Assembly: GCF_051216495.1 (NCBI RefSeq)
Contig: NZ_JBPKAM010000019.1
Coordinates: 1 to 40,000 of the forward strand
Direction of reading: 5' to 3'
Length of the DNA: 40,000 nucleotides
Origin: Pseudomonas baetica
GTDB lineage: Bacteria > Pseudomonadota > Gammaproteobacteria > Pseudomonadales > Pseudomonadaceae
Shown: positions 1 to 15,536 of the stretch, one piece after another
How the letters are laid out: every line of letters begins with the position of its first letter
How positions within the stretch are numbered: position 1 is the stretch's first letter
Notes under the pieces: model-generated
What the model was told of the DNA's origin: nothing
What the model saw: the letters and a program-made list of their open reading frames with translations, nothing else
The model's database searches: none
Made by a program: the position numbers and the translations under genes

Positions 1-13
1 CCCCACACAACCC

Positions 14-102
14 CTGTGGGATCGATCCTCCCCGCGAAAGGGGTAGGTCAGTAACTGAATTGTCGCCTGACACACTGCATTCGCGAGCAGGCTCGCTCCC
101 AC
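14..102. repeat. REP doublet (REPIN-like): degenerate copy at 14-38 facing a canonical copy at 81-102
   Basis: CTGTGGGATCGATCCTCCCCGCGAA matches the window consensus CTGTGGGAGCGAGCCTGCTCGCGAA at 21/25. The inverted TCGCGAGCAGGCTCGCTCCCAC lies about 45 nt away. The 22-mer recurs at 10 further sites in the window. Confidence 0.75.
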
Positions 103-125
103 AGGTTTTTCACAGTTCCTCTAAT

Positions 126-347
126 CTAAGCCTCCCAACCCGCCCCACTGACCGCCTCTTGCGCCAGTGGATGCAAGTCCGCTCCCTGATGCTCCGTCTG
201 CCAGGCCAGCAACTCCTTGCGCATGCCCGGCGTCCAATACATCTGCAGATGATTGCGCACACCGAGCACCGCCAGTTGCCGGTCCGGCTCGCTGGCGAAG
301 TACTGGGCGATCTGGTTGGCCATCTTGATCAGGTTGGCAGTGCTCAT
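126..347 (-). CDS. fdsD: Formate dehydrogenase delta subunit (FdsD-like small subunit)
   Basis: 73-aa ORF. Its ATG overlaps the fdsA stop (ATGA at 344-347). It is the last gene of the fdsGBA operon and its size and position match FdsD. Confidence 0.75.
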   Translation of the reverse strand: MSTANLIKMANQIAQYFASEPDRQLAVLGVRNHLQMYWTPGMRKELLAWQTEHQGADLHPLAQEAVSGAGWEA

Positions 348-3220: not shown

Positions 3221-4776
3221 TGTTCGGCCTCCGAGGCTTGCAGACCGAAGTCGGCGGGGAAATGTTTGAGGGCGCTGGCCACCGGGTAGGAGGTCATGCC
3301 GCCCAAGGCGCAGAGCGAGCCGTATTGCAGCGTGTCGCACAGGTCCTTGAGGATAATTACTTGCTCATCGCGAGCACTCTGATTCGGCGCGGCCAGCAGG
3401 CGGTCGATCACCTCCACGCCACGGGTCGAGCCGATGCGGCACGGGGTGCATTTGCCACAGGATTCTTCTGCGCAGAACTGCATGGCGAAGCGCGCCATGT
3501 GCGCCATGTCGAGGCTGTCGTCAGCCACCACCACACCGCCGTGACCGAGCATCGCGCCAATCGAGGCGAAGGCTTCGTAATCCAGCGGTGTGTCGAATTG
3601 CGAAGGCGGTACCCAGGCGCCCAACGGACCGCCCACTTGTGCGGCCTTCAGCGGCCGGCCACTGGCGGTCCCGCCGCCGTAGTCTTCCACCAGCTCGCGC
3701 AGGGTCAGGCCAAAGGCCCGTTCCACCAGTCCGCCGTGACGAATGTTGCCCGCCAGTTGGAAGGGCATGGTGCCCAGGGAGCGGCCCATGCCGTAATCGC
3801 GATAGAACTGCGCGCCCTTGGCCAGAATCAGTGGGACCGAGGCCAGGGTCAGTACGTTGTGTACCAGCGTTGGTTGGCCGAACAGGCCCTGCAACGCGGG
3901 GATCGGCGGCTTGGCGCGGACGATCCCGCGTTTGCCTTCCAGCGAATCCAGCAGTGCGGTTTCTTCACCGCAGATGTACGCACCGGCGCCCACTCGCACT
4001 TCCATATCGAATGCCTGACCGCTGCCGCCAACATTGGCACCCAGATAACCGGCATCACGGGCAATGGTCAGCGCCTGGCGCAAGGTGGCCACGGCATCCG
4101 GATATTCCGAGCGCACATAGATGTAGCCGAAGGTGGCGCCGGTGCAGAGACCGGCAATGGCCATGCCTTCGATCAGCAGGAAGGGGTCGCCTTCCATCAG
4201 CATGCGGTCGGCGAAAGTGCCGGAGTCGCCTTCGTCGGCGTTGCACACGATGTACTTTTGCGCAGCCTGAGTACCGCGCACCGTGCGCCATTTGATCCCG
4301 GCGGGGAAGGCTGCGCCGCCACGGCCACGCAGGCCGGAATCGAACACGGCGGTCGCGGTTTGTTCGCCGCCAATGGCGATGGCCCGTTTCAGACCTTCGA
4401 AACCGCCGTGGGCTTGATAATCGTCCAGCGACAGGGGCCGGGTGATGCCGGCGCGGGCGAACAGCAGGCGTTGTTGGGATTTGAGATAAGGCAGCTCTTC
4501 CACAAGGCCCAGGGCCAGTGGATGTGCTGTTGGGTTTTGGAGGGCTTCGAGTACGGACGGCACATCGTCTGCGGTCAACGGACCGAAGCCGATCCGGCCT
4601 TGCGGGCTGTCCACTTCCAGCAGCGGCTCCAGCCAATACAGGCCACGGGAACTGGTGCGCTGTAGCTCCAGCGGCAGATTAAGTGCCTTGGCCTGAGTGA
4701 TCAGCGCCGTGGAAACGTCATCGGCACCCACGGCACGGGCCAGCGAATCACAGGACAGATAAAGCGCCGGCATCAT
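3217..4776 (-). CDS. fdsB: Formate dehydrogenase beta subunit (NuoF/51-kDa-like, FMN/NAD-binding, 4Fe-4S)
   Basis: GRGGAAFPAG and ESCGKCTPCR motifs typical of NuoF-family proteins. The start is taken at the ATGATG at 4771-4776, which overlaps the fdsG stop (TGA 4773-4775). Confidence 0.92.
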   Translation of the reverse strand: MMPALYLSCDSLARAVGADDVSTALITQAKALNLPLELQRTSSRGLYWLEPLLEVDSPQGRIGFGPLTADDVPSVLEALQNPTAHPLALGLVEELPYLKSQQRLLFARAGITRPLSLDDYQAHGGFEGLKRAIAIGGEQTATAVFDSGLRGRGGAAFPAGIKWRTVRGTQAAQKYIVCNADEGDSGTFADRMLMEGDPFLLIEGMAIAGLCTGATFGYIYVRSEYPDAVATLRQALTIARDAGYLGANVGGSGQAFDMEVRVGAGAYICGEETALLDSLEGKRGIVRAKPPIPALQGLFGQPTLVHNVLTLASVPLILAKGAQFYRDYGMGRSLGTMPFQLAGNIRHGGLVERAFGLTLRELVEDYGGGTASGRPLKAAQVGGPLGAWVPPSQFDTPLDYEAFASIGAMLGHGGVVVADDSLDMAHMARFAMQFCAEESCGKCTPCRIGSTRGVEVIDRLLAAPNQSARDEQVIILKDLCDTLQYGSLCALGGMTSYPVASALKHFPADFGLQASEAEQ

Positions 4777-5249
4777 GCGTCCTCCTGGCAAGCATCGAGC
4801 AACGCATCCAGCCGCTCGGCACTGAGCCGCGCATGCACCCGACCATCCAGCTCCAGCGCCGGCGAACACGCGCAGGCACCGAGGCAATACACCGGGCGCA
4901 AACTGATGCTGCCATCGGCGCTACTGCCGTGATCATCCAGTTGCAGTCGATCGCGCAACTGCGCCGCCAACTGCTCGGCCCCACGGCTCTGGCAAGACTC
5001 GGCGCGGCACAAACGCAGAATATGGCGGGCCGGCGGCGAGGTACGGAAGTCATGGTAAAAACTGATCACCCCGCGAACCTCGGCCTGACTCAGGTTCAGC
5101 GCATGGGCAATCTCGGGGACAGCAACATCGGGGACATAACCGATGCGCTCCTGAATATCATGAAGAATCGGCAACAGCGCGCCGGGAGTGCCCTTATGGC
5201 GCTCCAGCAGCGTGTTGACCACAGGCAGGTGCAACTCAACATCAGGCAT
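4773..5249 (-). CDS. fdsG: Formate dehydrogenase gamma subunit (NuoE-like 2Fe-2S)
   Basis: 158 aa with the CRAESCQSRG ... CLGACACSPA cysteine pattern of NuoE-type ferredoxin subunits. First gene of the operon. Confidence 0.9.
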   Translation of the reverse strand: MPDVELHLPVVNTLLERHKGTPGALLPILHDIQERIGYVPDVAVPEIAHALNLSQAEVRGVISFYHDFRTSPPARHILRLCRAESCQSRGAEQLAAQLRDRLQLDDHGSSADGSISLRPVYCLGACACSPALELDGRVHARLSAERLDALLDACQEDA

Positions 5250-5709
5250 TCAGCAATCCTCACGGTCACGGACACACCAGGTGGTTGTCGGTTGTCCGAA
5301 AGTGTCGGCTGTGGCACTCACACCACGTCACGGTATCGTGGCATTGGCCGTTGGCCAGGGTGCCCTTGGCGGGCATCTTGTTGTGCCCGATGCGATCTTC
5401 GTCGCACCTCTACCGGGCATAAAGGGCAGCTTGCCACGCGGCTATTGATCGAACTGCACCAAAGCGACGTGTTCGGTTCTGCCTACGACTCTCCATTAAG
5501 TCTAGTAGAGCGGGGCGCGGGAGCCTCGGTCGGTGGCTTAATGCCTCTATGGGCTTGTCGTGGGGGATGTATAGCAAGCATTACCGGTGAGAAGAAGCAT
5601 CAGAACCCTGGGTAATTCTACGGAGCAGATGCAGGGGGGCTGACTCTGCAATCTCGATCGAGTATGAAGTCAGACTCAAGCCGTTCATTTGATAAACAGG
5701 GAAAGACCG

Positions 5710-6078
5710 ATGATTGATTTCAACAACAAAGGATTCTTCAAGCTCAAGCAAAACGACGAATACGCCGAACGCGTCTCCGCCCTGTTGATCGACGGCGAAC
5801 ACGTCATCGACGCCTACAAATCCATGCGCGACGGCGTGGTCTTTACCAACAAACGCATCATCTCGGTCAACGTCCAGGGCATTACCGGCAGCAAAAAAGA
5901 CTTCACTTCGTTGCCGTACAAAAACATCGTGGCGTACTCGGTGGAAACTTCAGGCACCTTCGACCTGGATTCCGAGTTGGAGATTTACTTCTCATCACTT
6001 GGTAAAGTGAAATTCGAATTCACCGGCAAGACGTCGATGGTGGAAGTTTCAAAGCTGATTTCCCAGCATTTGCTCTGA
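5710..6078 (+). CDS. Bacterial PH (YokE-like) domain protein
   Basis: 122 aa from MIDFNNKGFFKLKQ, with AGGGAAAG upstream of the ATG at 5710. The pattern ...DGVVFTNKRIISVNVQGITG...YKNIVAYSVETSG resembles bacterial pleckstrin-homology family proteins (from memory). Confidence 0.65.
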   Translation: MIDFNNKGFFKLKQNDEYAERVSALLIDGEHVIDAYKSMRDGVVFTNKRIISVNVQGITGSKKDFTSLPYKNIVAYSVETSGTFDLDSELEIYFSSLGKVKFEFTGKTSMVEVSKLISQHLL

Positions 6079-6127
6079 CCCCGTAACTCAAACGCCCCAA
6101 AAAAATCGGAGTTAACGCACATCCCTT

Positions 6128-6149
6128 GTGGGAGCGAGCCTGCTCGCGA
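6128..6149 (+). repeat. Single REP element
   Basis: Exact GTGGGAGCGAGCCTGCTCGCGA. Confidence 0.85.
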
Positions 6150-6175
6150 TTACGCCAGCCCAATCAACATCAATG

Positions 6176-6216
6176 CTGAATTCCGGTGAAGGATGCCCAT
6201 CCCCATTCAGTTTTTT
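6176..6216 (+). terminator. Possible intrinsic terminator after the PH-domain gene
   Basis: CTGAAT ... ATTCAG arms enclose an inner GGAT-GCCC-ATCC hairpin, followed by T6 (6211-6216). The outer loop is large, so the call is weak. Confidence 0.35.
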
Positions 6217-6218
6217 AT

Positions 6219-6719
6219 CTAAGAATGTTCACCAAGAACAAGCCTAGCATTCAGCGTATCCAGCAGATCAAAGGCGCTGACATACGGCACATTGAACTGC
6301 CGACAGATGTTGGGGATCTTGATTTTCTGACTGACGGGAGGCACCAGAACCTCATGGGTGACCACGGTCTGGCCGGTTGCGCTCGCCTTGGCAATCAACC
6401 ATGGATCGGCGCCTTCGAGAAATCGTGTTTTTTCGGTATCCCTGGGTAAAGGCAGGCTCATGACAAACCTGGTGATCTGCGCATAGGCATCCTGTGTACT
6501 GGAATCTTCGACTGGTAAGAAGTGGTTTGGTCTTTCTTTGGCCCAGTCGGATAGCTCGTCGCCGTAGTCGATCAATTCCCTGTACACGAGAGAAACGCTG
6601 GAAATTTTTCCGGCGTCATACGCACTGTCCAGCCAGTCCCAGAAGCCGGGACAGAAGCCCATCCGGTAGTGCGTGTTTTTTGCCTGTATATAGGAGGTTG
6701 TATCCAGCAGATAACTCAC
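6219..6719 (-). CDS. DUF4411-family (PIN-like) protein, putative nuclease/toxin partner
   Basis: 166 aa. The motif GADPWLIAKASATGQTVVTHE...KIKIPNICRQFNVPYV matches my recollection of DUF4411. Its ATG overlaps the stop of the upstream ImmA/IrrE gene by 4 nt (6716-6719). Confidence 0.65.
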   Translation of the reverse strand: MSYLLDTTSYIQAKNTHYRMGFCPGFWDWLDSAYDAGKISSVSLVYRELIDYGDELSDWAKERPNHFLPVEDSSTQDAYAQITRFVMSLPLPRDTEKTRFLEGADPWLIAKASATGQTVVTHEVLVPPVSQKIKIPNICRQFNVPYVSAFDLLDTLNARLVLGEHS

Positions 6720-7852
6720 AATCCAAGTTCCTTCTTAGAGTATTCAGCTAATTTGTGCGGCTTCACGCCAATCAGGCGTGCGGCGTCTCGGTAAAGCATT
6801 CTTCCGCTTAATGCTTCAGTGGCCACTGCTGTAGCGAAGGTCTTGCTGACTCGCGCAGTCTGCAACCGGTTATAGGGCGGGGTTCCGTTCTTGCTACGTG
6901 CCTTGTGCTCGGCGACTTTTTGGCTGATGTACGCGCCGTATTCGGACACTGTGATGAGGTTGAAGGTCAGGGCGCGCCTGGCGATGACCCAACCGCTCAC
7001 ATGGAACAATGTTGTCAGTGGAAAGACGTTGTCCTCCCACTCAATATTGGCATCCCAAGTGGAAAGGAATTCGCGCTCAGGCGTTAATAGCTCAGCCGCG
7101 ACCGCATTACAGAGGACTTCTTCCGCCCTGTGATTGGCGGGTTCGCCATCGGACACACCAGAGCGGCCTATCCAAATGTGAGCCAATTCGTGTGCCAAGG
7201 TGAACAGCCTTGCCTCGGGGCAATCGGCAGTATTGATGAAGATGACGGGGGCTAATTCGTCGCAGAGGGCAAAGCCTCGAAACTCCTCTATCAGCAACGG
7301 CCTGCTTGTATTGTTGTTGACAACACTGCTGCGCATGACCAGTACGCCGACCGTCTCGATTTTACTGATCAGGGTTTTGAAGTAAGCATCAAAATCGCCG
7401 CGATCGGGTTTTGGGGGCAGGTTCAAGGTGGATCGAATATCAGCGACGATCAGGTTGGGACTGTCGCTCAGCGAAAACTTTCCCATGACTCCATTTTCAG
7501 CAATGCCTTGGCTGATCAGATAGTCGCGATACCATTCCTGCCTTTCCTGAGCCCACCGAATGGTATCTAACAGGGCGAGACTGTACCCGTTGTCGCGCTT
7601 GCCATTGACCGTTCTAAGGTCCGGCAGAGGAAGGCTTTCCTCTGGAGGCTGGGAAAGATAAAGGTAACCAAAGGGGATGTAGGTCTGCCGGGCGTAATTC
7701 ATCGCCTGATTGAAGGAGGGTCTTTTCTTGCCTTGCTCCCATGCCAGCACATTGTCTTCCCGCGTACCCAGGCTTTTCGCCAGAGTGCTGGTGCTGAGGG
7801 ATGCCCGTTCACGCGCCCACCGCAGGACGTGCGGATTGATCAACGCTTCCAT
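6716..7852 (-). CDS. Fused XRE-type HTH / ImmA-IrrE (M78, COG2856) zinc metallopeptidase
   Basis: The N-terminus LRWARERASLSTSTLAKSLGTREDNVLAWEQGKKRPSFNQ is a Cro/C1-like HTH. HELAHIW (HEXXH) is followed by EVLCNAVAAELLTPE, which is typical of ImmA/IrrE. Confidence 0.85.
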   Translation of the reverse strand: MEALINPHVLRWARERASLSTSTLAKSLGTREDNVLAWEQGKKRPSFNQAMNYARQTYIPFGYLYLSQPPEESLPLPDLRTVNGKRDNGYSLALLDTIRWAQERQEWYRDYLISQGIAENGVMGKFSLSDSPNLIVADIRSTLNLPPKPDRGDFDAYFKTLISKIETVGVLVMRSSVVNNNTSRPLLIEEFRGFALCDELAPVIFINTADCPEARLFTLAHELAHIWIGRSGVSDGEPANHRAEEVLCNAVAAELLTPEREFLSTWDANIEWEDNVFPLTTLFHVSGWVIARRALTFNLITVSEYGAYISQKVAEHKARSKNGTPPYNRLQTARVSKTFATAVATEALSGRMLYRDAARLIGVKPHKLAEYSKKELGL

Positions 7853-7984
7853 GTGCGATTCCGTTTCGGTGTCATAACCATTTCAGAAAATGCGTCTACG
7901 CAGCTGATCCGAACGATAGCGGCATCTGACAGCAAGGGAAGGGCACGGTCGCGTGTAATTCGTCTCTAAATGCTGCGTATTGGA

Positions 7985-8005
7985 AGCCCCGATTGACTCG
8001 GGGCT
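7985..8005 (-). terminator. Hairpin downstream of the DUF3077-like gene (no U-tract)
   Basis: AGCCCCG-ATTGACT-CGGGGCT, a 7-bp GC-rich stem about 20 nt after the stop at 8027. There is no T run, so the call is weak. Confidence 0.3.
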
Positions 8006-8026
8006 GGCCTCACAGTCTTGCGGCAA

Positions 8027-8338
8027 CTACTCCTCAGCCCTCGCCGCCGCCCGTTTTGACATCGGCACAACCGTCCGATCCCGCGTCAGCACCTTCACCG
8101 CATCATCCACCACCGCCTTACTCATCGCCGTCAAATAATGCGCCGCCCAAGCGTGGTAATCCGTGTCCCGGGCATAGGCCGCATCCTTGGTCAGCGCCTT
8201 GGCGAGAAACAGAAAGTCAGAAGCCATGGCCAACGCATCGCCGAGCGGGACATCGCGGGTGACGTGGAATAGAGGTTGATCAGAGCAGTAAATGGCGGGG
8301 GTTAAACCGATGGTTTTGAATTCGGGTTGTTCGGTCAT
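8027..8338 (-). CDS. DUF3077-like small Pseudomonas protein
   Basis: 103 aa from MTEQPEFKT (ATG 8336-8338), with GGAGGTGG 5 nt upstream. PLFHVTRDVPLGDALAMASDFL fits the LF.V...DAL..AS.LL pattern I associate with DUF3077. Confidence 0.55.
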   Translation of the reverse strand: MTEQPEFKTIGLTPAIYCSDQPLFHVTRDVPLGDALAMASDFLFLAKALTKDAAYARDTDYHAWAAHYLTAMSKAVVDDAVKVLTRDRTVVPMSKRAAARAEE

Positions 8339-8950
8339 TGGCCACCTCCGAGGAGGGAGGGGCAATGGGGGAGGGGGTTACGCGATTGGGAGTTGCGTAG
8401 AGGGGAAGGCCAAGTTTTGTACGGATTTCTACTGCGCATGATCTAACTCCTTGATACGAAACTTCAGGAGCTGCCACGTACGTTACCACACGAATGGGTG
8501 ACAGCTGTGCGCAGGGTGGTAAACCGGGTATCAAGGAAACCGGCACGCCCGAGGGCGTCCCACGCACAGCCGCCATAACTCACGTGTGCGGGCATAAAAA
8601 AACGCCTGCATACGTGATGGGGGCGCTGTAGCGCCTTAATACATCGGGTTACCACACCCGGTCGCTGAATTGGCAGCGACGGGTGGGAGGGTATCGTGCG
8701 GATTTTCTTCCTGCAACCCTCAAAAGTCCTAGTTGCAGATCACCCTAGACGAAAAGTTTCATGTTCTCGACGTGTTCGTTGCGCGTTCAAGAGCAGCTAC
8801 GCTCATAGATCGCTTTCGGCTGATTGTGTTGAAAAAGTCGGTCCTTCCAGACTGTCCTCATACTGGCGAACCGCATTTGGCTCAAAGCTAGGCTATTGGA
8901 TCTTTTTGATACATCCTGACCTAATGGCGAATTGATATAGGGGACATGGA

Positions 8951-10255
8951 ATGCACGAAGCGTTGACAACCATTCAAACCCAGCTAGAAGCTGTGATTGC
9001 GCAGATAAAGGCCACAGTGCCTAACGACGAGCCGTTCGGGATCGCTCATGGCAACTGGTCGTTCCCTGGACTTACGAGATCGGAACTCATCGAAGAAGCA
9101 CAATCAATCATTGAGTTGATTGATGATAACGGTCCTGATGAATTGGGGAGTTCGGAAGACCGGATTAAGGATTATGCTCGGCGCATTACCTATTTGCACG
9201 GAGCCACCGTTCCGAATATTTGGGGTAGCGCAGCCACTGCAATTCCTACATATATGTTCACGCTTGGGGGACTGCGCAAAGCCCTTGAGCCGGTCTTGAA
9301 GGCCGACGAACGTGCGGAGGCACAAGCAAAAATCCGTAGGCTGACTTTGCAACTACGGGCTATGGAGGCGCGAATTAAGGGGTTAGAACCGCGCACTGCT
9401 GACCTAAGTTCAATGGTGGAGAGGATTGAGCAGGCATACAACGCGGCTGATCAGCTTCCTGCCGACTTGGAGCAGTTGTCAGAGGCGAAAAAGACGATAG
9501 ATGACCTTGCTCAATCGGCAACCAAAGACCAAGCCCGTATCCTGACGCTTCGAGAGCACGCCGACGAAATTGATGCTCTGCTGAAAATAAGTGCGGAGGA
9601 CGCGGAAGCGGTGCTAAAACGCTGCGAGACAGCCTATTCGGCGGCGACAAGCGTTGGGTTGGCGGCCGCATTCAGCGAGCGCTCTATAGCTCTATCCAAG
9701 TCGATGTGGTTCTGGGTTGCTGGACTTGCCGTTGCCCTTGTGGGGGGGAGTTATTTCGGCTCCAATCAGCTTCACACGCTTTCAGAGCTTTTCCGAATTC
9801 CAAACATATCGACATCGGTGGTGACTCTGAATTTGCTACTGTCGCTGCTTTCCGTTGGCGCTCCTGTTTGGTTTTCATGGCTGGCTACAAAGCAGATAGG
9901 ACAAAGATTCAGGCTTGCTGAAGATTATGCCTTCAAGGCATCCATTTCACGCGCGTATGAGGGTTTCCGGCGAGAAGCTGCTGGATTTGACAAAGAAATG
10001 GAAGCGAAACTACTTTCATCTGCACTTGCTCGGTTCGATGAGCTTCCTCTCCGACTGGTAGAACCTGATAGCCATGGAAGTCCTTGGCATGAACTTGCTT
10101 CGTCGGATGTTGTTAAGCAAGCACTCAAAGCCGTACCAGGTTTTACTGAGCAAATAAAAGATCTCGCGGGCAAAGCTGTTGATACCGTGACGCCTTCAAA
10201 AGCGAAACCAGCACCAACACCCACTGCAGCACCTGCATCTTTACCGATTGAGTAG
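8951..10255 (+). CDS. Orphan coiled-coil protein with a 2-TM hairpin (unknown function)
   Basis: 434-aa uninterrupted ORF. It has heptad-like charged helices (about residues 120-240), two hydrophobic segments (MWFWVAGLAVALVGGSYFG and VVTLNLLLSLLSVGAPVWFSWLA), then ATKQIGQRFRLAEDYAFKASISRAYEGF and a Pro/Ala/Thr-rich tail. I recognise no family. Confidence 0.75.
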   Translation: MHEALTTIQTQLEAVIAQIKATVPNDEPFGIAHGNWSFPGLTRSELIEEAQSIIELIDDNGPDELGSSEDRIKDYARRITYLHGATVPNIWGSAATAIPTYMFTLGGLRKALEPVLKADERAEAQAKIRRLTLQLRAMEARIKGLEPRTADLSSMVERIEQAYNAADQLPADLEQLSEAKKTIDDLAQSATKDQARILTLREHADEIDALLKISAEDAEAVLKRCETAYSAATSVGLAAAFSERSIALSKSMWFWVAGLAVALVGGSYFGSNQLHTLSELFRIPNISTSVVTLNLLLSLLSVGAPVWFSWLATKQIGQRFRLAEDYAFKASISRAYEGFRREAAGFDKEMEAKLLSSALARFDELPLRLVEPDSHGSPWHELASSDVVKQALKAVPGFTEQIKDLAGKAVDTVTPSKAKPAPTPTAAPASLPIE

Positions 10256-10294
10256 TCACAGTTGCACCTTATGCAATGCTACATACCGCGTAAC

Positions 10295-10386
10295 AAAAAG
10301 GGGACAACAAAAAAGGTACAGGTTTATTTTCTTTAAAATAAGTCTGTACCCTTTTTGCCGCTTTTGTCCGAAAATAAATCGTTCCC
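10295..10386. repeat. Hairpin-family copy A (nested imperfect palindrome)
   Basis: AAAAAGGGGACAAC ... AAAAGGTACAGGTTTATTTT / AAAATAAGTCTGTACCCTTTTT ... TTGTCCGAAAATAAATCGTTCCC. It lies just 3' of the 434-aa gene. Confidence 0.7.
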
Positions 10387-10792
10387 ATCTTTAGTCCATC
10401 TTCAGCCAAATTTTTATTAATTATGATTCTGGGTAGTATGGTTGGTGCAGCGGGCGAATGATGAGGTGACATAAGCTATGGAGGACACGAAGAGAAGAGC
10501 TCAGTCTGAATCCGCAACGAGCAAGCCCGGAGCGTGCCTTCTCTGAGCCCCCCAGAAAACTGATCATTGGGCGATAGGAGAAATGAAAGGGAGCTTAAAG
10601 GCTATGAATCCAATGAAGGGCTAACCCAACTATATGATGCACATAGAGCGCATGAGCATATCAGGGGCTAGCAAAGCAAAATCAGGTTCAATCTAGAAAC
10701 TTTTGAAGATTATCAGTAAATTTAAGCAGTTATGGCGGTTAGCATATTCGACTTCTTCGCGACCTCCGCTTACTCACAGGACTAACAAAATA

Positions 10793-11605
10793 ATGCGGGC
10801 AGCAGCGCTTGTCTTCTTGGTTTTTTCTACCATCATAGTAATTATCACCGGCTTTTGGGGGTGGGTATCAAGCAGCATATTCCCAAGCCAGACTTGGGGT
10901 TTATACTCTCGCTCTTTCTTTGAAGACATACTGGCAAACGCTCACGGAACAATAATAGACCTTTTTGTAGTCGGCCTGATCCTCTACTGGTTTGAGCAAC
11001 GCCGGAACGAAAGAGATGAAGCTGAACGTTCTCGTCGCCTTCGCGAAGATAAAGCGAGAAGGAATCGTGAGGATCTGGCTGACTTACGTTACGATCGCTC
11101 AACTGATGCACCATACAAAGTGCTTGGGACAATTCGACGTCTTCTTGATCTTGAAGAGAAAAAGTTAAAACTTTCAGAGGTAAATCTTTCAAGGTTAGAA
11201 ATAAGAGACCTAAAATTAGAGCATGGTGATCTTCATGCGGCGATATTCAAAGGCAGTCGATTGCTTCGCGTAAGCATTGATAACTGCAGATGTGAAGCTG
11301 CGATATTCATTGATGCGCAACTTGAACATACAACATTCTCTAAAACCGATTTGCGTCGCGCAAAATTTCAAAACGCCACGCTAAAAGGAATGGATTTCAC
11401 CAGTTGTGATGTCGCTCACGCGGACTTCAGTGGGGCGGACTTGAGTAGTGCAAATTTCCGAGGTGTCGATTGCAAAGGGGTTAAGTTCACTAATGCCATT
11501 CTTCGATCGACAAATTTCATTGACGCTAAAAATTTAGATCCGTACGTAATCGAGCTTGAAAAGCGTCCTAAGGGACCAAAAGTTACGTCTTACAAGGCCC
11601 CATAG
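10793..11605 (+). CDS. Membrane-anchored pentapeptide-repeat protein
   Basis: Two N-terminal hydrophobic helices (AAALVFLVFSTIIVIITGFWGWV, GTIIDLFVVGLILYWF), a highly charged linker (EQRRNERDEAERSRRLREDKARRNRED), and C-terminal A(D/N)LXX-type repeats (ADFSG ADLSS ANFRG VDCKG VKFTN AILRS TNFID). The ATG at 10793 is preferred; an in-frame TTG at 10703 is possible. Confidence 0.8.
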   Translation: MRAAALVFLVFSTIIVIITGFWGWVSSSIFPSQTWGLYSRSFFEDILANAHGTIIDLFVVGLILYWFEQRRNERDEAERSRRLREDKARRNREDLADLRYDRSTDAPYKVLGTIRRLLDLEEKKLKLSEVNLSRLEIRDLKLEHGDLHAAIFKGSRLLRVSIDNCRCEAAIFIDAQLEHTTFSKTDLRRAKFQNATLKGMDFTSCDVAHADFSGADLSSANFRGVDCKGVKFTNAILRSTNFIDAKNLDPYVIELEKRPKGPKVTSYKAP

Positions 11606-11796
11606 TACGTAGAAAATAAAAACTGGGGGGGAATCCAACCACCCTCTCTGGGGGTTTCCCCCTCCTCAGCAGCAGCCAGTTGATCTTCAGATTAACATGA
11701 AGACGATGGACACAGTCAAGCCTACCGGCCGCCCATGGCGTCTAGGTTTATAGCTTCGACGACAGGAAAAAAAGAAAAAGTAAGAAAAAATAAGAA

Positions 11797-11850
11797 AAAA
11801 GGGGGCAGATTTATTTTAGTGGAATGTCTAGACAGAAAAAATCTGTCCCC
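11797..11850. repeat. Hairpin-family copy B
   Basis: AAAAGGGGGCAGATTT (arm 11801-11812) ... AAATCTGTCCCC (11839-11850), with one arm mismatch and a 26-nt loop containing GTCTAGAC. It is preceded by a roughly 40-nt A/G-rich tract. Confidence 0.7.
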
Positions 11851-11954
11851 TTTGCCCGGTCCTTCAACGTTCACAATACCTATGAACAGCGAGATTCCCG
11901 TTGCTAAAACAAATTCTGACCCAAGCAAAACTACCGAAAGACAAAACCACCATC

Positions 11955-12734
11955 ATGTCTGGGATCAAAGCCGTGCTGGCATTTCTCTCCCTGGGTACGG
12001 TCCACTATATTGGATTTCTTATGGAGATACCCTTCGAGATAGTTTCCATAGTATCGCTTAAGTTTCTGACAAATTTTGTCGCCACCTTTACCTTCTACCT
12101 CACATTCTGCTATATGGCCACGAAAGTGTTCGCCTTTGTGATATCACAGCTTTACTACTCTGCGCTAGCACCTCTTGCAGCTTTAACCTTTGCTGCTAGT
12201 AGAAAATTTCCTGAACGGCTAAGAAAGCCTGCGAGGCGAATGCACAGAGAAACCAATATCGCAGAAAAGCTCATTTATTGGGTGTTTTTCCTAGTTATAT
12301 TCAGCTTTATGTTCAATTTTTCGTACTTGAAGTTTGACTATTCTACTGTTGGTAGAATGACATGGATGTGGGTGGGTGGCATAAGTTTTGCCGCAATACT
12401 GAAATCCGGGATAATGATTCGCCCGACCACGCAGATCAAACGAATCCTTGATAAGAAAAGAATAGCTTTAAGAAGGTCTCTCATACGAGATTATATCTAT
12501 CTGCTTACAGGTTCAGCCGTAGCGCTTTCATTTTATACAGGCATGCTAAGATTTGAAAAAATAATGACCGAAGATGTAGTTAATTTCAGAAGCGAACAGT
12601 ACCAAGGGCAAGCCCGTGTTCTTTTGAGTATCGACGATGCTTATTTGTTAGTCGAAAGCAGTTTCAGAAAGCAAACATTTTTTTATCTGGTAGATACGAT
12701 AATGATACGATTGCCAACCGATCGCAATAAGTAG
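11955..12734 (+). CDS. Orphan polytopic membrane protein
   Basis: 259 aa from MSGIKAVLAF (ATG 11955; an in-frame TTG at 11901 is also possible). It has about 6-7 hydrophobic segments, basic loops (RKFPERLRKPARRMHRE, KRILDKKRIALRRS) and a roughly 55-aa soluble C-terminus. I recognise no family. Confidence 0.65.
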   Translation: MSGIKAVLAFLSLGTVHYIGFLMEIPFEIVSIVSLKFLTNFVATFTFYLTFCYMATKVFAFVISQLYYSALAPLAALTFAASRKFPERLRKPARRMHRETNIAEKLIYWVFFLVIFSFMFNFSYLKFDYSTVGRMTWMWVGGISFAAILKSGIMIRPTTQIKRILDKKRIALRRSLIRDYIYLLTGSAVALSFYTGMLRFEKIMTEDVVNFRSEQYQGQARVLLSIDDAYLLVESSFRKQTFFYLVDTIMIRLPTDRNK

Positions 12735-12750
12735 CTAAATTTTTATTCAT

Positions 12751-12895
12751 GCAGACGCTAGCGCAAAAAAGTGACGGCACAAAAACACAAAAAAGGGGGC
12801 AGCAAAAAGGAGCAAAAAGGGAGCAAAAAGGGACAGCAAAAAGGGGACAGATTTATTTGAAATCAAATCTGTCCCCTTTTTGCTGAAGCGTCTGC
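12751..12895. repeat. Hairpin-family copy C, a composite element
   Basis: Outer inverted repeat GCAGACGCT (12751-12759) / AGCGTCTGC (12887-12895). Internal tandem AGCAAAAAGG-type units (about 12795-12842). Perfect 20-bp stem AGCAAAAAGGGGACAGATTT (12835-12854) / AAATCTGTCCCCTTTTTGCT (12865-12884). Confidence 0.8.
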
Positions 12896-13063
12896 CCAAG
12901 ACGTAACCTGCTTGGGATCACTAAGTAAAGTTTACTAAGGATTCAATTTTTTAATGGCTGCCTTGAATAAAGCTTATCTTCATTTATTGCCGCTGATAGC
13001 CTGCTTTCGACTGATGTCGTTAAGCTTTGAAATAGAGAAGATGCATTACATTGTAAAGAGAAT

Positions 13064-13111
13064 AAAAAAGGGGAAGGTTTATTTTTTAAATAAACCTTCC
13101 CAATTTTTTTT
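13064..13111. terminator. Bidirectional intrinsic terminator (hairpin-family copy D) after the rexB-like gene
   Basis: Perfect 14-bp stem GGGAAGGTTTATTT (13071-13084) / AAATAAACCTTCCC (13088-13101) with a 3-nt loop, A6 upstream and T8 downstream. It lies 26 nt beyond the stop at 13137. Confidence 0.8.
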
Positions 13112-13136
13112 GCTTTTAATTCCTAAAAAAGTAAGA

Positions 13137-13613
13137 TTAGTGTGAGGAGGACTTGTTGTGCAATGTTAAGAATGCAAATAATAGAATTAATATGTGGAAC
13201 ATGCTGTTAATGCTCATAACCATTGAGCTATTGAAGAATAGCTCCGGTCTGGAAGAAAGCATTAATATAGAAATGAAGAAATTCACTGCAAGGCATAATA
13301 TTGCAAAAAAATACATTCCCATTAAAATTGAAAAATATCCGTGTGCTTTGTAGCGTTCATAAAAGCTACTTTTGCCAATGCTTAGAATTATTACAACTGA
13401 TCCGGCGAGGAGGGTCATCATCGTAAAACAAAATGTTGCCATGATAACGGCAACATTGCCATTTTGCTTTAAAAGGCTAAGCGATACTCCTAGCTTTGGA
13501 ACTAACAGCCAGTGATAGATTGCCCAGCAAAATAGTCCAGGCAGGGTCATGATTGTAAGCAGTAATAGCGATATTAGGATCTTTTTCGATTTTGACAGCG
13601 CTCTTGAGCTCAT
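13137..13613 (-). CDS. RexB-like four-helix membrane protein
   Basis: 158 aa with four hydrophobic segments. It is co-linear with lambda RexB as I recall it: FYERYKAHGYFS vs LAKIREYGYMTS, ILMLSS vs LLLLSS, and the C-terminal HILILLFAFLTL vs HICILVFQLYNL. It sits immediately 3' of the rexA-like gene. Confidence 0.65.
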   Translation of the reverse strand: MSSRALSKSKKILISLLLLTIMTLPGLFCWAIYHWLLVPKLGVSLSLLKQNGNVAVIMATFCFTMMTLLAGSVVIILSIGKSSFYERYKAHGYFSILMGMYFFAILCLAVNFFISILMLSSRPELFFNSSMVMSINSMFHILILLFAFLTLHNKSSSH

Positions 13614-14448
13614 TTAAACGCCCCGCAAGATATTTGTTTTGAACAATGAGTTTTTGCATCAGGCTCGGTATTTCGTTTTCCGTCCTGTAGCTGAATTCAT
13701 CGTAAATTGCGCTATTTTCGCTCAAATAGAAATCTGTCAGGGTGTCTTTAATGAACTCTTTTGCTCTGATTTTTACTGCGACGTCAGAGCTTCCGCTAAC
13801 CTTTTCAATAAGGGTCGAGACAATTGGCTTAATGTTTCCTCTTTTAGTAGGCTTAAATATTATTTCCACCGAATCCATAGATAGGTCGTTGGAAATATCA
13901 AGCCCGAAAACATTCCCAAGTTCTTGGGCGAGAGTATTTTCTCGGGATAGTTCTATGCTTGTTCGACCAACGACATTTAGAGTCATTACATCTTTTGCAT
14001 TTGCTTCCATCATAACCGGGTTAACTCGAAAATCAAGATGATTGATTCCGAGGCTGGCTAGGATGTCATTTACGAAGACACTAAACGGCGATACGCCAGG
14101 AGCCATAAATGTCGAAGAAATTCCAAAGTGATCTTCTCCGAAAACGATGTAAGATGCGTAACCTAGTTCGCTTTCGTTATCAATTTTGTTTCTGAGGTCG
14201 TCAAAGGTCATATTGCCTTTGTTTATTTGTTTAAAGAAGTCAGTGTTTCTAGTTTCTAAAAACAAAAATATATTCTCTGTGGATGGCACTGAAAATAAGT
14301 ACAGGTTCTCTCCGTTGTAAGAGAACGTGCTTTTGTATTCTGGATTTTTAATTAGTGAGAAATTCAGAAGAAAATCTCGCATGTCAAATTCTAGATTTTT
14401 GCCAGAATTTCTATCTTTGAAGTAGTAACTAAAATACTTGATCTTCAC
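13477..14448 (-). CDS. RexA-like protein
   Basis: 323 aa with a GTG start at 14446-14448. It is co-linear with lambda RexA from memory: NLYLF..FLFLETRN..FKQINKG..DDLRNKI..ESELGYASYIVFGEDHFGIS vs YLYIH..FLFTKTND..VQKINRS..EDIKNSL..DESLGFPSFLFVEGDTIGFA; VGRTSIEL vs IGRTTVKV; VEIIFKPTKRGNIK vs LDIVIKPKFKRDIK; VKIRAKEFIKDTLTDFYLSE vs ISLRAKDEAGDILTEHYLSE. Confidence 0.72.
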   Translation of the reverse strand: MKIKYFSYYFKDRNSGKNLEFDMRDFLLNFSLIKNPEYKSTFSYNGENLYLFSVPSTENIFLFLETRNTDFFKQINKGNMTFDDLRNKIDNESELGYASYIVFGEDHFGISSTFMAPGVSPFSVFVNDILASLGINHLDFRVNPVMMEANAKDVMTLNVVGRTSIELSRENTLAQELGNVFGLDISNDLSMDSVEIIFKPTKRGNIKPIVSTLIEKVSGSSDVAVKIRAKEFIKDTLTDFYLSENSAIYDEFSYRTENEIPSLMQKLIVQNKYLAGRLNELKSAVKIEKDPNIAITAYNHDPAWTILLGNLSLAVSSKARSIA

Positions 14449-14748
14449 CTTAAGTCCCTTTTTGGATGTTTGATAGCATTTTGCTATAAATCCATTTGTT
14501 GCACAATATCTTGTTTAGTCGCGTTTTGCTGATTGCCGAGACAAGGTCGGGTTGATTTGATGGGAGCGCTTGTTGGGTAGGGGGAAGGCAGGTCGAAGTC
14601 AAATTACCAGCGAAGTGTGGAGATGAGCTATGGAATTCATTCGGTCAAGATTTCTCTACCTGCTCTCCTTGCGAACCTAAAGCTTTTCTATTCAGAGGGA
14701 TCTCCGCTGATGGGGTCCCCTAGCTCTACGTTGTCATCCACATAGACG

Positions 14749-14770
14749 GAAAGGGGGCGGATTTATTATT
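14749..14770. repeat. Hairpin-family half-copy E (no partner arm)
   Basis: GAAAGGGGGCGGATTTATTATT matches the AAAGGGG.C.GATTTATT core. I found no inverted partner nearby. It sits at the right edge of the low-GC DNA. Confidence 0.5.
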
Positions 14771-14833
14771 GGGTTAGGCGTGGCGAATTACGCCGTTCCA
14801 TGGGCCCTCCCGCTTCAGGCACCCTTGCTGACA

Positions 14834-15163
14834 TCATTGGATGTCTTTCAGATATTCCTTGAGTGCAATGAGTGGGTCATCAAGCAGCGCCAGCGTCTGA
14901 GCACTAGAAAACTCCCCCACCAACCTCCCCAACTCCCGCCCCAACGGCTTATCCACACCCCCAACAGCCTCCAGCGCCAACCCCACACACTCACCCACCT
15001 TCACCTGAATCCCCTCGACATCCCCCCGTCGCACCAGCAACTCAAACACATCCCGCTGGTAATCGCCCATCACCAGGTCATCGCGCAGGATCGGGCTTTG
15101 GTCTTCGGTTTCGTAGGCGAGTTTGAGGGAGTAGAGGGCGATGGTTTCCAGTTGCGATTCCAT
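14834..15163 (-). CDS. Hypothetical protein (109 aa, native GC)
   Basis: Clean ORF with host-like GC and codon usage. I recognise no family. Confidence 0.55.
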   Translation of the reverse strand: MESQLETIALYSLKLAYETEDQSPILRDDLVMGDYQRDVFELLVRRGDVEGIQVKVGECVGLALEAVGGVDKPLGRELGRLVGEFSSAQTLALLDDPLIALKEYLKDIQ

Positions 15164-15223
15164 GGGGGAGTCCTTGTGAAAGGGTTTAATCCGGTGAAGA
15201 GCAAAAGAAGAAGAGCAAGATCA

Positions 15224-15254
15224 AAAGATCGCAGCCTTCGGCAGCTCCTACAGG
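15224..15254. repeat. Second REP family, single copy
   Basis: AAAAGATCGCAGCCTTCGGCAGCTCCTACAGG is a GC-rich imperfect palindrome (CAGCCTTCGGCAG). It is distinct from the GTGGGAGCGAGCC family and resembles another Pseudomonas REP type I recall. Confidence 0.55.
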
Positions 15255-15307
15255 TCTGGGCGTTGTCAGGGGGTTGCCGGTGGGGTGTCGGCGGCTTTTC
15301 TGTGGGC

Positions 15308-15337
15308 GAAAAAAAAGGCCTTGCTAAGCAAGACCTT
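15308..15337 (-). terminator. Intrinsic terminator of tRNA-Leu
   Basis: Minus strand: AGGTCTTGC-TTA-GCAAGGCCT followed by T9, about 10 nt after the tRNA 3' end. Confidence 0.85.
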
Positions 15338-15346
15338 TCTTAATTT

Positions 15347-15431
15347 TGGTGCCCCGAGGGAGACTCGAACTCCCACTCCTTTCGAAAACGGATTTTGAAT
15401 CCGCCGCGTCTACCAATTCCGCCATCAGGGC
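15347..15431 (-). tRNA. tRNA-Leu (anticodon CAA), class II with long variable arm
   Basis: Minus strand: GCCCTGATGGCGGAATTGGTAGACGCGGCGGATTCAAAATCCGTTTTCGAAAGGAGTGGGAGTTCGAGTCTCCCTCGGGGCACCA. It has a 7-bp acceptor stem, anticodon loop TTCAAAA, T-arm GGGAGTTCGAGTCTCCC and an encoded CCA. Confidence 0.95.
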
Positions 15432-15442
15432 AATGGCCGCGG

Positions 15443-15471
15443 AGTATAAAGATGAGATAACCGCTGGTCAA
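15443..15471 (-). promoter_or_regulatory. Sigma70-type promoter for tRNA-Leu
   Basis: Minus strand: TTGACC, 17 nt, TATACT. The -10 element ends 11 nt before the mature tRNA 5' end. Confidence 0.6.
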
Positions 15472-15536
15472 TCAGGTACATGGAGAATTTTTGATATTTC
15501 CGCTAGACTTCCCGGCCCTGCTAGACGAACCCCATC

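Follow-up and report, generated by a model that had tools for sequence, protein, structure and literature searches.

In the RexAB system of phage lambda, a cytoplasmic sensor switches on a membrane effector. Type I restriction-modification (R-M) operons can contain accessory abortive-infection genes, such as PrrC/EcoprrI and RloC, and the pentapeptide-repeat proteins Qnr, MfpA, and McbG shield gyrase from toxins. A RexAB-type pair from a Pseudomonas putida prophage defends against phage, with membrane damage that depends on RexB (PMC12894663). In Pseudomonas aeruginosa, defense hotspots have core-gene flanks and a lowered GC content and are often without mobility genes (PMC10250203). Here we describe a locus of Pseudomonas baetica. 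The window, that is, the whole stretch of DNA that we analyzed, comprises 40,000 nucleotides (nt) (positions 1 to 40,000 of contig NZ_JBPKAM010000019.1), and the DNA in question is a slot at 8722 to 14833 that holds a rexA-rexB pair and three further genes, which we call A, B, and C. We think it probable that this DNA is the current cargo of a chromosomal defense hotspot and that it consists of four separately acquired cassettes.

By means of queA, we retrieved the corresponding region of 80 Pseudomonas species, with one genome per species. Both flanks were common to nine species, and in all nine the cargo between them was unlike that of the window. In each, blastn similarity to the window ended at 8718 to 8730 and resumed at 14833 to 14839, at the stop codon of a 109-amino-acid (aa) gene, and the conserved blocks (8023 to 8720 and 14833 onward) were 79 to 93% identical at the DNA level. 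The nine sister slots contained 2.8 to 6.3 kb of unrelated DNA with 42 to 52% GC. We found NsnABC in one of them (L007), NsnA/NsnB-like genes in a second (L003), Hachiman HamA/HamB in a third (L017), AbiD in a fourth (L008), and a large defense-type AAA ATPase in a fifth (L009). A further slot (L005) encoded a 549-aa protein with only a borderline match to ThsA (STALD), beside a second ImmA/DUF4411 pair, and another (L001) held apparent insertion-sequence open reading frames (ORFs), as judged from translations alone. A, B, C, RexA, and RexB were found at this locus in none of the 80 species. Because the flanks are kept, the cargo differs, and known defense systems occupy it in other species, we concluded that the slot is a variable defense hotspot. 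An initial annotation of this DNA, made from the letters alone, had suggested aligning the fdsG-to-queA interval across Pseudomonas genomes, and that alignment bore out a variable hotspot with known defense systems in other species. Defense hotspots between core genes are a known kind of locus, of which this one is a new example.

The composition of the slot sets it apart from the DNA around it. Its 6.1 kb have a GC content of 43.7%, against 63.0% for positions 1 to 5300 and 60.3% for 15500 to 40000. Successive 500-nt segments between 10001 and 14500 ranged from 34 to 45% GC, and most of the 40 kb lies at 57 to 68%. Two 60-nt samples that had earlier been put at about 32 to 33% GC came to 31.7% and 33.3% when we recomputed them. 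The cargo would be swapped by homologous recombination in the conserved flanks, without a resident integrase. The hotspot is precisely bounded and occurs in plant- and soil-associated Pseudomonas, and its anchors could allow cargo to be collected from hundreds of genomes.

Four cassettes would make up the cargo of the window, namely, rexA-rexB, A, B, and C, each ending in or bounded by a palindrome. The features are as follows.

8722 to 14833, no strand: variable slot (cargo), from blastn against nine related loci and GC content
8951 to 10255, plus strand: gene A, 434 aa, with more than 2,000 homologous clusters, a match to phrog_34659, a transmembrane (TM) scan, and an AlphaFold2 (AF2) model
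10306 to 10359, no strand: palindrome H1 at the A/B junction, -27 kcal/mol, z -4.1, covariance model score of 52.8 bits
10485 to 10655, plus strand: remnant of a small gene, 77% identical to positions 1242 to 1413 of L093, another locus that carries B
10714 to 11746, plus strand: B cassette of about 1.03 kb, 89% DNA identity to L093 and to the Pseudomonas lini locus L224
10793 to 11605, plus strand: gene B, 270 aa (also 270 aa in the NCBI annotation), Pfam PF00805, phrog_12514
11765 to 11862, no strand: A-rich tandem repeats and then palindrome H2 at the B/C junction, from repeat, motif, folding, and covariance scans
11901 to 12734, plus strand: gene C, 277 aa, TTG start, from 16 homologues, their alignment, and an AF2 model
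12750 to 12897, no strand: composite palindrome H3, -53.4 kcal/mol, z -6.2, 54.2 bits
13054 to 13118, no strand: palindrome H4, terminator-like on both strands, from folding and the covariance model
13137 to 13613, minus strand: rexB, 158 aa, PADLOC RexB, four TM segments
13477 to 14448, minus strand: rexA, 323 aa, Pfam RexA, PADLOC RexA, PDB 8TWQ, tblastn to lambda
14738 to 14785, plus strand: half-site H5, GGGGGCGGATTTATT and then GGTTAGG, folding z -0.7
8027 to 8720, minus strand: left anchor, with a c4-a1b1 target (8641 to 8694), a C4 antisense RNA (8494 to 8580), and a DUF3077 gene (8027 to 8365)
14834 to 15431, minus strand: right anchor, with the 109-aa gene (14834 to 15163) and tRNA-Leu(CAA) (15347 to 15431)
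5689 to 7852: acquired genes on the left, namely, bPH_1 (5689 to 6078, plus strand), DUF4411 (6219 to 6719, minus strand), and a helix-turn-helix (HTH)/M78-peptidase ImmA-like gene (6716 to 7852, minus strand)

The ORFs listed in the initial annotation were present as placed, and we corrected the start of C, the minus-strand block, and the spacer lengths. C had been started at 11955; its homologues begin to align at the TTG at 11901, and the NCBI annotation agrees with this start. The block at 13137 to 14448 resolves into rexA and rexB, which overlap by 137 nt. The spacers had been given as 300 to 450 bp and measure 537, 295, and 402 bp. A 19-residue hydropathy scan agreed with the earlier count of four membrane proteins among the five encoded in the slot, with two TM segments in A, two in B, at least three in C, four in RexB, and none in RexA. 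For A, B, C, and RexA, database entries of P. baetica have the identical protein sequence.

It had also been proposed that A, B, and C might act singly or together. We found that each of them occurs without the other two in every other locus examined, and we therefore regard them as separate cassettes. Joint action of A, B, and C is unlikely. Palindromes H1 to H4 lie between the stretches that each cassette shares with its other contexts, and at the B/C junction similarity to two other contexts of B stops where the A-rich repeats and H2 begin.

The best-characterized cassette is the Rex-like pair, which had been recognized from the letters and which proved to be real, since both proteins are homologous to those of lambda by Pfam, PADLOC, PDB, and tblastn scores. 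RexA matched Pfam PF15969 (8.7e-52, spanning 1 to 234 of 235), the PADLOC RexA model (2.3e-48), the structure of lambda RexA (PDB 8TWQ, 6.4e-20), and the PHROG family "RexA-like exclusion protein" (1.1e-28). In a tblastn comparison with phage lambda, it was 26% identical to lambda RexA. RexB matched the PADLOC RexB model over positions 3 to 140 of 141 (1.2e-19) and has four hydrophobic segments. rexA lies directly upstream of rexB on the same strand. By every sequence criterion, the pair belongs to the RexAB family. We found no cI-type repressor or prophage gene beside rexAB in the slot, which is a feature of the context and not of the proteins. At 90% identity clustering, RexA was a singleton. 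By homology, RexA would be a cytoplasmic DNA-binding sensor and RexB a four-TM effector; once activated, RexB would damage or depolarize the membrane, and the infection would be aborted. The pair is a chromosomal relative of RexAB that is closer to that of lambda than is the P. putida system tested so far.

The 3' end of rexA is atypical. The frame runs about 44 codons beyond its expected end and so overlaps rexB. A TAA adjoining the rexB ATG is one base out of the rexA frame and lies just after a GGGG run (13621 to 13624). The alternative frame in the 13477-to-13661 region is open for only 14 codons, and a 1-nt indel near the rexA 3' end is therefore possible.

Among the remaining genes, A appears from its contexts to be the best candidate for a new defense gene. 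It encodes an N-terminal helical domain, a long coiled coil, two TM helices, and a conserved C-terminal region. Apart from weak coiled-coil matches, we found no significant match for A in Pfam, NCBIfam, or PADLOC, and a PDB sequence search returned none; exact look-ups of A and of P0122 matched no record. The family is nevertheless large. All of its more than 2,000 clusters are labeled hypothetical, and members from Beta- and Gammaproteobacteria are 65 to 70% identical. A also matched phrog_34659, of unknown function (1.8e-69). In the family alignment, residues 225 to 385 are nearly invariant, and an invariant motif follows the second TM helix (residues 313 to 342). Alignments with distant plasmid homologues begin only at about residue 135, so the N-terminal domain seems to have been swapped between lineages. 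This suggests that a variable sensor domain is joined to a conserved membrane module. The AF2 model had a mean pLDDT of 64, with residues 1 to 115 at about 88 followed by long helices that include the two TM segments, and a Foldseek search of the PDB with this model found nothing with an E value below 0.1.

We then considered where A homologues occur. In a Klebsiella Tn7-like element, a type I R-M operon contains A as the gene after hsdS and before hsdR, with a 4-nt overlap between A and hsdR, and BrxR and GmrSD lie alongside. A gammaproteobacterial metagenome-assembled genome (MAG) has the same hsdS-A-hsdR order, with BrxR upstream and SMODS/SLATT genes downstream. The 4-nt overlap with hsdR was present in two separate lineages. 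In metagenomic contigs, A was immediately upstream of ThsB/ThsA (Thoeris). On a Klebsiella plasmid, a 34% identical homologue sits in a P2-like prophage between the replication genes and the portal gene, which is the site of old and tin in P2. Other homologues lie among hypothetical genes of a Providencia phage and in an integrase-trio element of Aeromonas. We also noted that the operons in Klebsiella pneumoniae and in the unrelated MAG have the full order hsdM-hsdS-A-hsdR (L081 to L084 and L221, 8001 to 9323).

Taken together, these contexts suggest that A is probably a single-gene membrane effector. Its position inside hsdM-hsdS-A-hsdR operons suggests that it may be a back-up that fires when restriction fails. 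According to this model, A would combine a variable N-terminal sensor domain, a coiled coil, and the conserved two-TM module; in the window, A stands alone. Should A turn out to be a membrane effector that is coupled to type I restriction, failed restriction would have a second kind of back-up besides the PrrC-type nucleases. As an unnamed family of more than 2,000 clusters with repeated occurrences in R-M operons, beside Thoeris, and in a P2-like prophage, A is a strong and easily tested candidate for a new defense gene.

The initial annotation had described A, B, and C as three unrecognizable membrane proteins. This does not hold for B, which belongs to the pentapeptide-repeat proteins by its matches to PF00805 (1.7e-21, 75.8 bits; cut-off, 20.2) and PF13599 (66.2 bits; cut-off, 38). 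B has two N-terminal TM helices, then a highly charged linker/helix, and then the repeats, which form a right-handed beta-helix of about 120 residues with PDB matches that include QnrB1 and MfpA. It matched phrog_12514 (7.9e-34) and has about 40 full-length homologues. Alignments to relatives that contain Ion_trans_2 cover the repeats only, and we rejected the idea that the TM domain is an ion channel. We also rejected B as HalA of Hailong; HalA was its only defense-family match in NCBIfam 2026, far below threshold (15.8 bits against a cut-off of 250), and the slot contains no HalB nucleotidyltransferase gene, adjacent to B or elsewhere. Our best guess is that B is a membrane-tethered DNA mimic. 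Its repeat domain would present a DNA-like surface on the membrane and may trap a phage or toxin DNA-binding protein at the inner membrane.

The identity of the B cassette to its two other contexts extends over the cassette only. In L093, B is preceded by an 85-aa gene, to part of which the remnant upstream of the cassette corresponds; no intact ORF is left of it in the window. In L093, an 80-aa gene with a weak DUF805 match follows the 85-aa gene; it is deleted in the window. Elsewhere, B is found with an IS3-type transposase (HTH_Tnp_1/rve ORFs) together with a retron-like reverse transcriptase/STM3845 pair, and with toxin-antitoxin genes.

C is a rare orphan family. It has several TM helices and a small C-terminal beta domain. 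We found 16 word-indexed homologues, and a profile search of 1.84 billion representatives gave 67 representative clusters of similar length and with no extra domains. There was no match in Pfam, PHROG, PADLOC, or PDB sequences. In another Pseudomonas, the island that contains C also has GmrSD, a helicase, and MvaT. C would be an acquired multi-TM protein of unassigned role in the cargo.

Several points weigh against reading the whole slot as defense cargo. The initial annotation had proposed a PADLOC run; this matched RexA and RexB, and for A, B, and C there was neither a match in PADLOC 2.0 nor a significant defense family in NCBIfam 2026. Some of the contexts of A are uninformative, and its predicted structure is poor and gave no fold match. 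The AF2 model of C (mean pLDDT of 54) was too poor for a structure search, and in Pseudomonas baltica C was inserted by itself, as low-GC DNA, between ppa and a gene for an esterase. In P. lini, B directly follows a type VI secretion system (T6SS) module of PAAR, Amidase_2, and small secreted-protein genes. The 44-aa extension of RexA could be a frameshift that impairs rexA or could be a natural extension. Finally, the variability seen is that between species, since our collection comprises one genome for each. All three genes had been put forward as the best candidates for phage exclusion or membrane suicide. That view stands for A, which is a strong candidate by context only; the evidence for a defense role is weak for B and almost absent for C.

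Some of these points also fit another explanation, in which B, C, and possibly A are prophage-type membrane proteins or give immunity to bacterial toxins (T6SS, contact-dependent inhibition, or bacteriocin), and RexAB is the sole phage defense. The P. lini B cassette comes directly after two PAAR/Amidase_2/secreted-protein modules and near a Tai4 immunity gene, no defense model matches A, B, or C, and C has no defense-specific neighbors in P. baltica. Pentapeptide-repeat proteins that protect gyrase are known, and immunity proteins against pore-forming toxins are typically small and multi-TM, as C is. With a T6SS effector/immunity module beside B in P. lini, immunity against competing bacteria is a live alternative for B, and we treat it as a serious rival to the DNA-mimic model. 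However, the cassette common to the three B loci starts only 78 nt upstream of B, which argues that B was inserted independently next to the T6SS module and weakens B as a T6SS immunity gene. By the positive-inside rule, an inference from sequence, the repeat domain of B should be cytoplasmic, which would exclude immunity to a periplasmic amidase. For A, the contexts are overwhelmingly antiphage (R-M, Thoeris, BrxR, GmrSD, and CBASS-type genes and a P2-like prophage). We regard this explanation as possible, though not likely.

The P. lini locus itself (L224, 3915 to 10813) contains two tandem modules of PAAR, Amidase_2, and a 95-aa secreted protein near the Tai4 gene. A gene for a 264-aa protein comes after the first module, and the B cassette comes after the second. 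Inserted genes seem to accumulate at this T6SS effector locus.

A different origin for the whole slot would be a decayed integrative element, such as a P4-like satellite or a prophage, at tRNA-Leu(CAA), with the present genes as leftover morons. The island lies on the 3' side of this tRNA gene, which ARAGORN placed on the minus strand, and this is the kind of site that P4 uses. The left flank also has phage features. Both flanks had been described as native, which is only partly true of the left one, where positions 5500 to 8720 have 54% GC and include further variable DNA and the DUF3077 gene lies in a C4-RNA module. In this module, the C4 antisense RNA upstream of the DUF3077 gene matched Rfam RF01695 (84 bits; gathering threshold, 45), the c4-a1b1 target matched RF03163 (50.1 bits; gathering threshold, 46.7), and the DUF3077 gene matched Pfam (2.2e-26). 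There was also a subthreshold isrK-like match within the module (8494 to 8694, minus strand). The block of about 700 bp that contains the module is 79 to 88% identical at the DNA level in the nine species and forms the exact left edge of the slot. Judged by these matches, the C4/DUF3077 module is of phage type, with an immunity RNA like that of P1/P7, and is not plain housekeeping DNA. Moreover, matches to phage protein families were obtained for each of A, B, RexA, DUF3077, and the bPH protein, and A is present in a P2-like prophage and a Providencia phage.

Nevertheless, the ORFs that we scanned in 5300 to 15500 gave no integrase or transposase and no structural, replication, or packaging gene; that integrase, transposase, and phage structural genes are absent had been noted from the letters. 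The tRNA 3' end is without a direct repeat; its last 28 nt have no second copy in the window at up to three mismatches, and we rejected tRNA-derived att repeats there. In nine species the anchors are kept and the DNA between them is entirely different, which fits cargo exchange better than decay. A decayed integrative element is therefore unlikely, and exchange of cargo in a hotspot remains the reading that we prefer.

Farther left, the acquired genes matched bPH_1 (1.1e-38), DUF4411 (3.4e-45), and Peptidase_M78 (7e-15) in Pfam. The HTH/M78-peptidase gene matched PADLOC RmrA (1.4e-19) and overlaps the DUF4411 gene by 4 nt, and the DUF4411 partner matched no PADLOC RmrT model. The pair looks like RosmerTA or a toxin-antitoxin system. 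Together with the neighboring bPH gene, it occupies another variable slot, to the left of the C4-RNA/DUF3077 module. In L005 and L015, a 45 to 48% identical DUF4411/ImmA pair lies on the other side of DUF3077. Because the bPH and DUF4411/HTH-ImmA genes vary in presence and order among related species, the fdsG-to-tRNA interval contains nested variable slots.

The remaining question is what the palindromes at the cassette junctions are. The initial annotation had seen variants of one hairpin motif in the spacers, and the motif is real. Seven copies of AAAGGGGACAGATTTATTT with up to three mismatches are present in the window, all of them in the island, where 0.01 would be expected. H1 to H4 are full palindromes (-21 to -53 kcal/mol; z, -3.2 to -6.2). 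The fifth copy (14738 to 14769) is a half-site only and forms no hairpin. L003 and L034 have similar half-sites near the right end of their slots, and the GGTTAGG tail is common to the window and L003. H3 consists of five tandem left-arm fragments, a core with a perfect 21-bp stem (12834 to 12885), and an outer inverted repeat, and H4 lies 20 nt downstream of rexB. A terminator consensus scan called H1, H3, and H4, and it called H4 on both strands.

The palindromes belong to a larger family. We searched metagenomes for the exact arms GGGGACAGATTT and AAATCTGTCCCC separated by a gap of 4 to 24 nt and found at least 120 contigs (L095 to L214; e.g., L124 at 359, 8723, and 9667; L154 at 2308; and L110 at 1712) with 43 to 70% GC. 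Their palindromes have in common the core AAAAGGGGACAGATTTATTT with its complement. The inner and outer stems differ between copies and covary, so that the arms still pair; both sides have changed in 11 of 25 pairs, 95.5% of cells are paired, and none of 500 shuffles reached this score. Within a contig the inner sequence is alike, and it is genome specific; the palindromes occur in either orientation, and tandem fragments of the arm ends are common. The palindromes lie a few bases after stop codons, for example, those of response regulators, PhoH, SurA, and LspA. A Pfam scan of 150 genes beside these palindromes gave housekeeping families and no enrichment of transposases or defense genes. Among 2.9 million viral contigs there was no copy. 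Plasmids gave no blastn match, possibly because of the low-complexity filter, and Rfam gave no family match. A search of literature full text with the palindrome sequence found unrelated eukaryotic primers only and no bacterial context. In Pseudomonas, the nine sister slots (35 kb) contain the motif six times, where 0.05 would be expected, and the other 1.49 Mb contain it only six times. In L003, L007, and L017 at least, a defense gene ends no more than about 70 nt upstream of it, counted from the stop codon. The covariance model recovered the four full palindromes of the window, as it must by construction, and otherwise found full ones only in the L017 slot, which has Hachiman.

The simplest reading is that the palindromes are bidirectional terminators that are somehow mobile or favored in acquired DNA. 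With its A-tract, G+C-rich stem base, and T-tract, each palindrome would terminate transcription both ways and so insulate the cassettes from one another. Alternatively, the palindromes could be recombination sites, either of an integron-like array without an integrase or of an unknown recombinase that inserts at GGGGACAGATTT hairpins. Five sites bound the four cassettes, and the palindromes are at most about 30 nt from the ends of the DNA shared with other contexts. The enrichment in the sister slots, the half-sites with the GGTTAGG tail, and the covariation of the stem also fit such sites, and the tandem arm-end fragments resemble scars of repeated events.

Like attC/CALIN arrays (clusters of attC sites lacking integron-integrases), the window has several successive palindromes on the 3' side of unrelated cassettes and lacks a nearby integrase. 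Unlike attC sites, these palindromes have no R/L boxes (by inspection, no RYYYAAC/GTTRRRY pair) and no extrahelical bases, most copies are perfect, the core is strongly conserved, and there is no Rfam match. We therefore rejected an integron or CALIN array. CALIN cassettes would be short, promoterless, and in the same orientation, whereas here the spacers are 295 to 537 bp, the cassettes bring their own long upstream regions, and rexAB runs opposite to A, B, and C. Against recombination sites of any kind, the palindrome is missing from the other contexts of B and C, palindromes follow the stop codons of housekeeping genes in metagenomes, a full palindrome is present in only one other Pseudomonas slot, and there is no recombinase gene nearby. 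We consider recombination sites very improbable. A bolder proposal, that the GGGGACAGATTT palindromes are an undescribed and widespread mobile element that joins defense cassettes and that A founds a family of membrane effectors wired to R-M, also strikes us as improbable. As putative terminators or otherwise, a conserved palindrome at cassette junctions poses a small but real puzzle about how hotspots are assembled.

We made three further observations on this family. At 12781 to 12834, before the core of H3, five progressively shortened copies of the left arm (CAAAAAGGGGACAG and shorter) form an A(N)GGA-like run, and the opposite strand gave a weak CsrC-like match in Rfam (22.6 bits; gathering threshold, 61). 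Some metagenomic copies form a second class of bare half-site arrays that are iteron-like. In L138 (5887 to 5994) and L181 (1698 to 1820), the palindrome is centered in a perfect inverted repeat of at least 40 nt per side, which may be either a natural palindrome of great length or a fold-back artifact of the assembly.

How do the cassettes compare with the systems described at the outset? Like the lambda genes, the pair in the window has the order rexA and then rexB, a RexA that is a sequence homologue, and a RexB that matches the profile over its full length and has four TM segments. The P. putida prophage P1 pair PP_5643/PP_5644 is also of RexAB type and is more distant from the pair in the window. 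The expected mechanism, a cytoplasmic sensor that activates a membrane effector, is common to the lambda and P. putida systems (for P. putida, PMC12894663). Unlike both, rexAB in the window is a free-standing cassette in a chromosomal hotspot, outside a prophage and with no cI upstream. Its RexA differs from lambda RexA in sharing only 26% identity and in the 44-aa run-on into rexB.

A resembles PrrC/EcoprrI and RloC in that it occupies the hsdS-hsdR position of PrrC-type guards in type I R-M operons. In contrast to them, it has no nuclease or ATPase domain, combines a coiled coil with two TM helices, and also occurs alone. B shares right-handed beta-helix repeats with Qnr, MfpA, and McbG/AlbG and differs from Qnr, MfpA, and McbG in its N-terminal two-TM anchor and charged linker. 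In distant relatives of B, the repeats are fused to ion-channel or TIR domains in an order different from that of B.

The slot as a whole is closest to cDHS1 and cDHS2 of P. aeruginosa (Johnson et al. 2023, PMC10250203). Like these, it has core flanks and hypervariable low-GC cargo, holds many defense systems across genomes and many genes of unknown function, and often has no mobility gene. It differs from them in its location, between the fds operon/C4-DUF3077 region and the 109-aa gene/tRNA-Leu/queA region of a P. fluorescens/putida-type lineage. Its cargo is small (2.8 to 6.3 kb), and one of its anchors is a phage-type C4 RNA module. Also unlike cDHS1 and cDHS2, the slot in the window has a shared palindrome at its cassette junctions.

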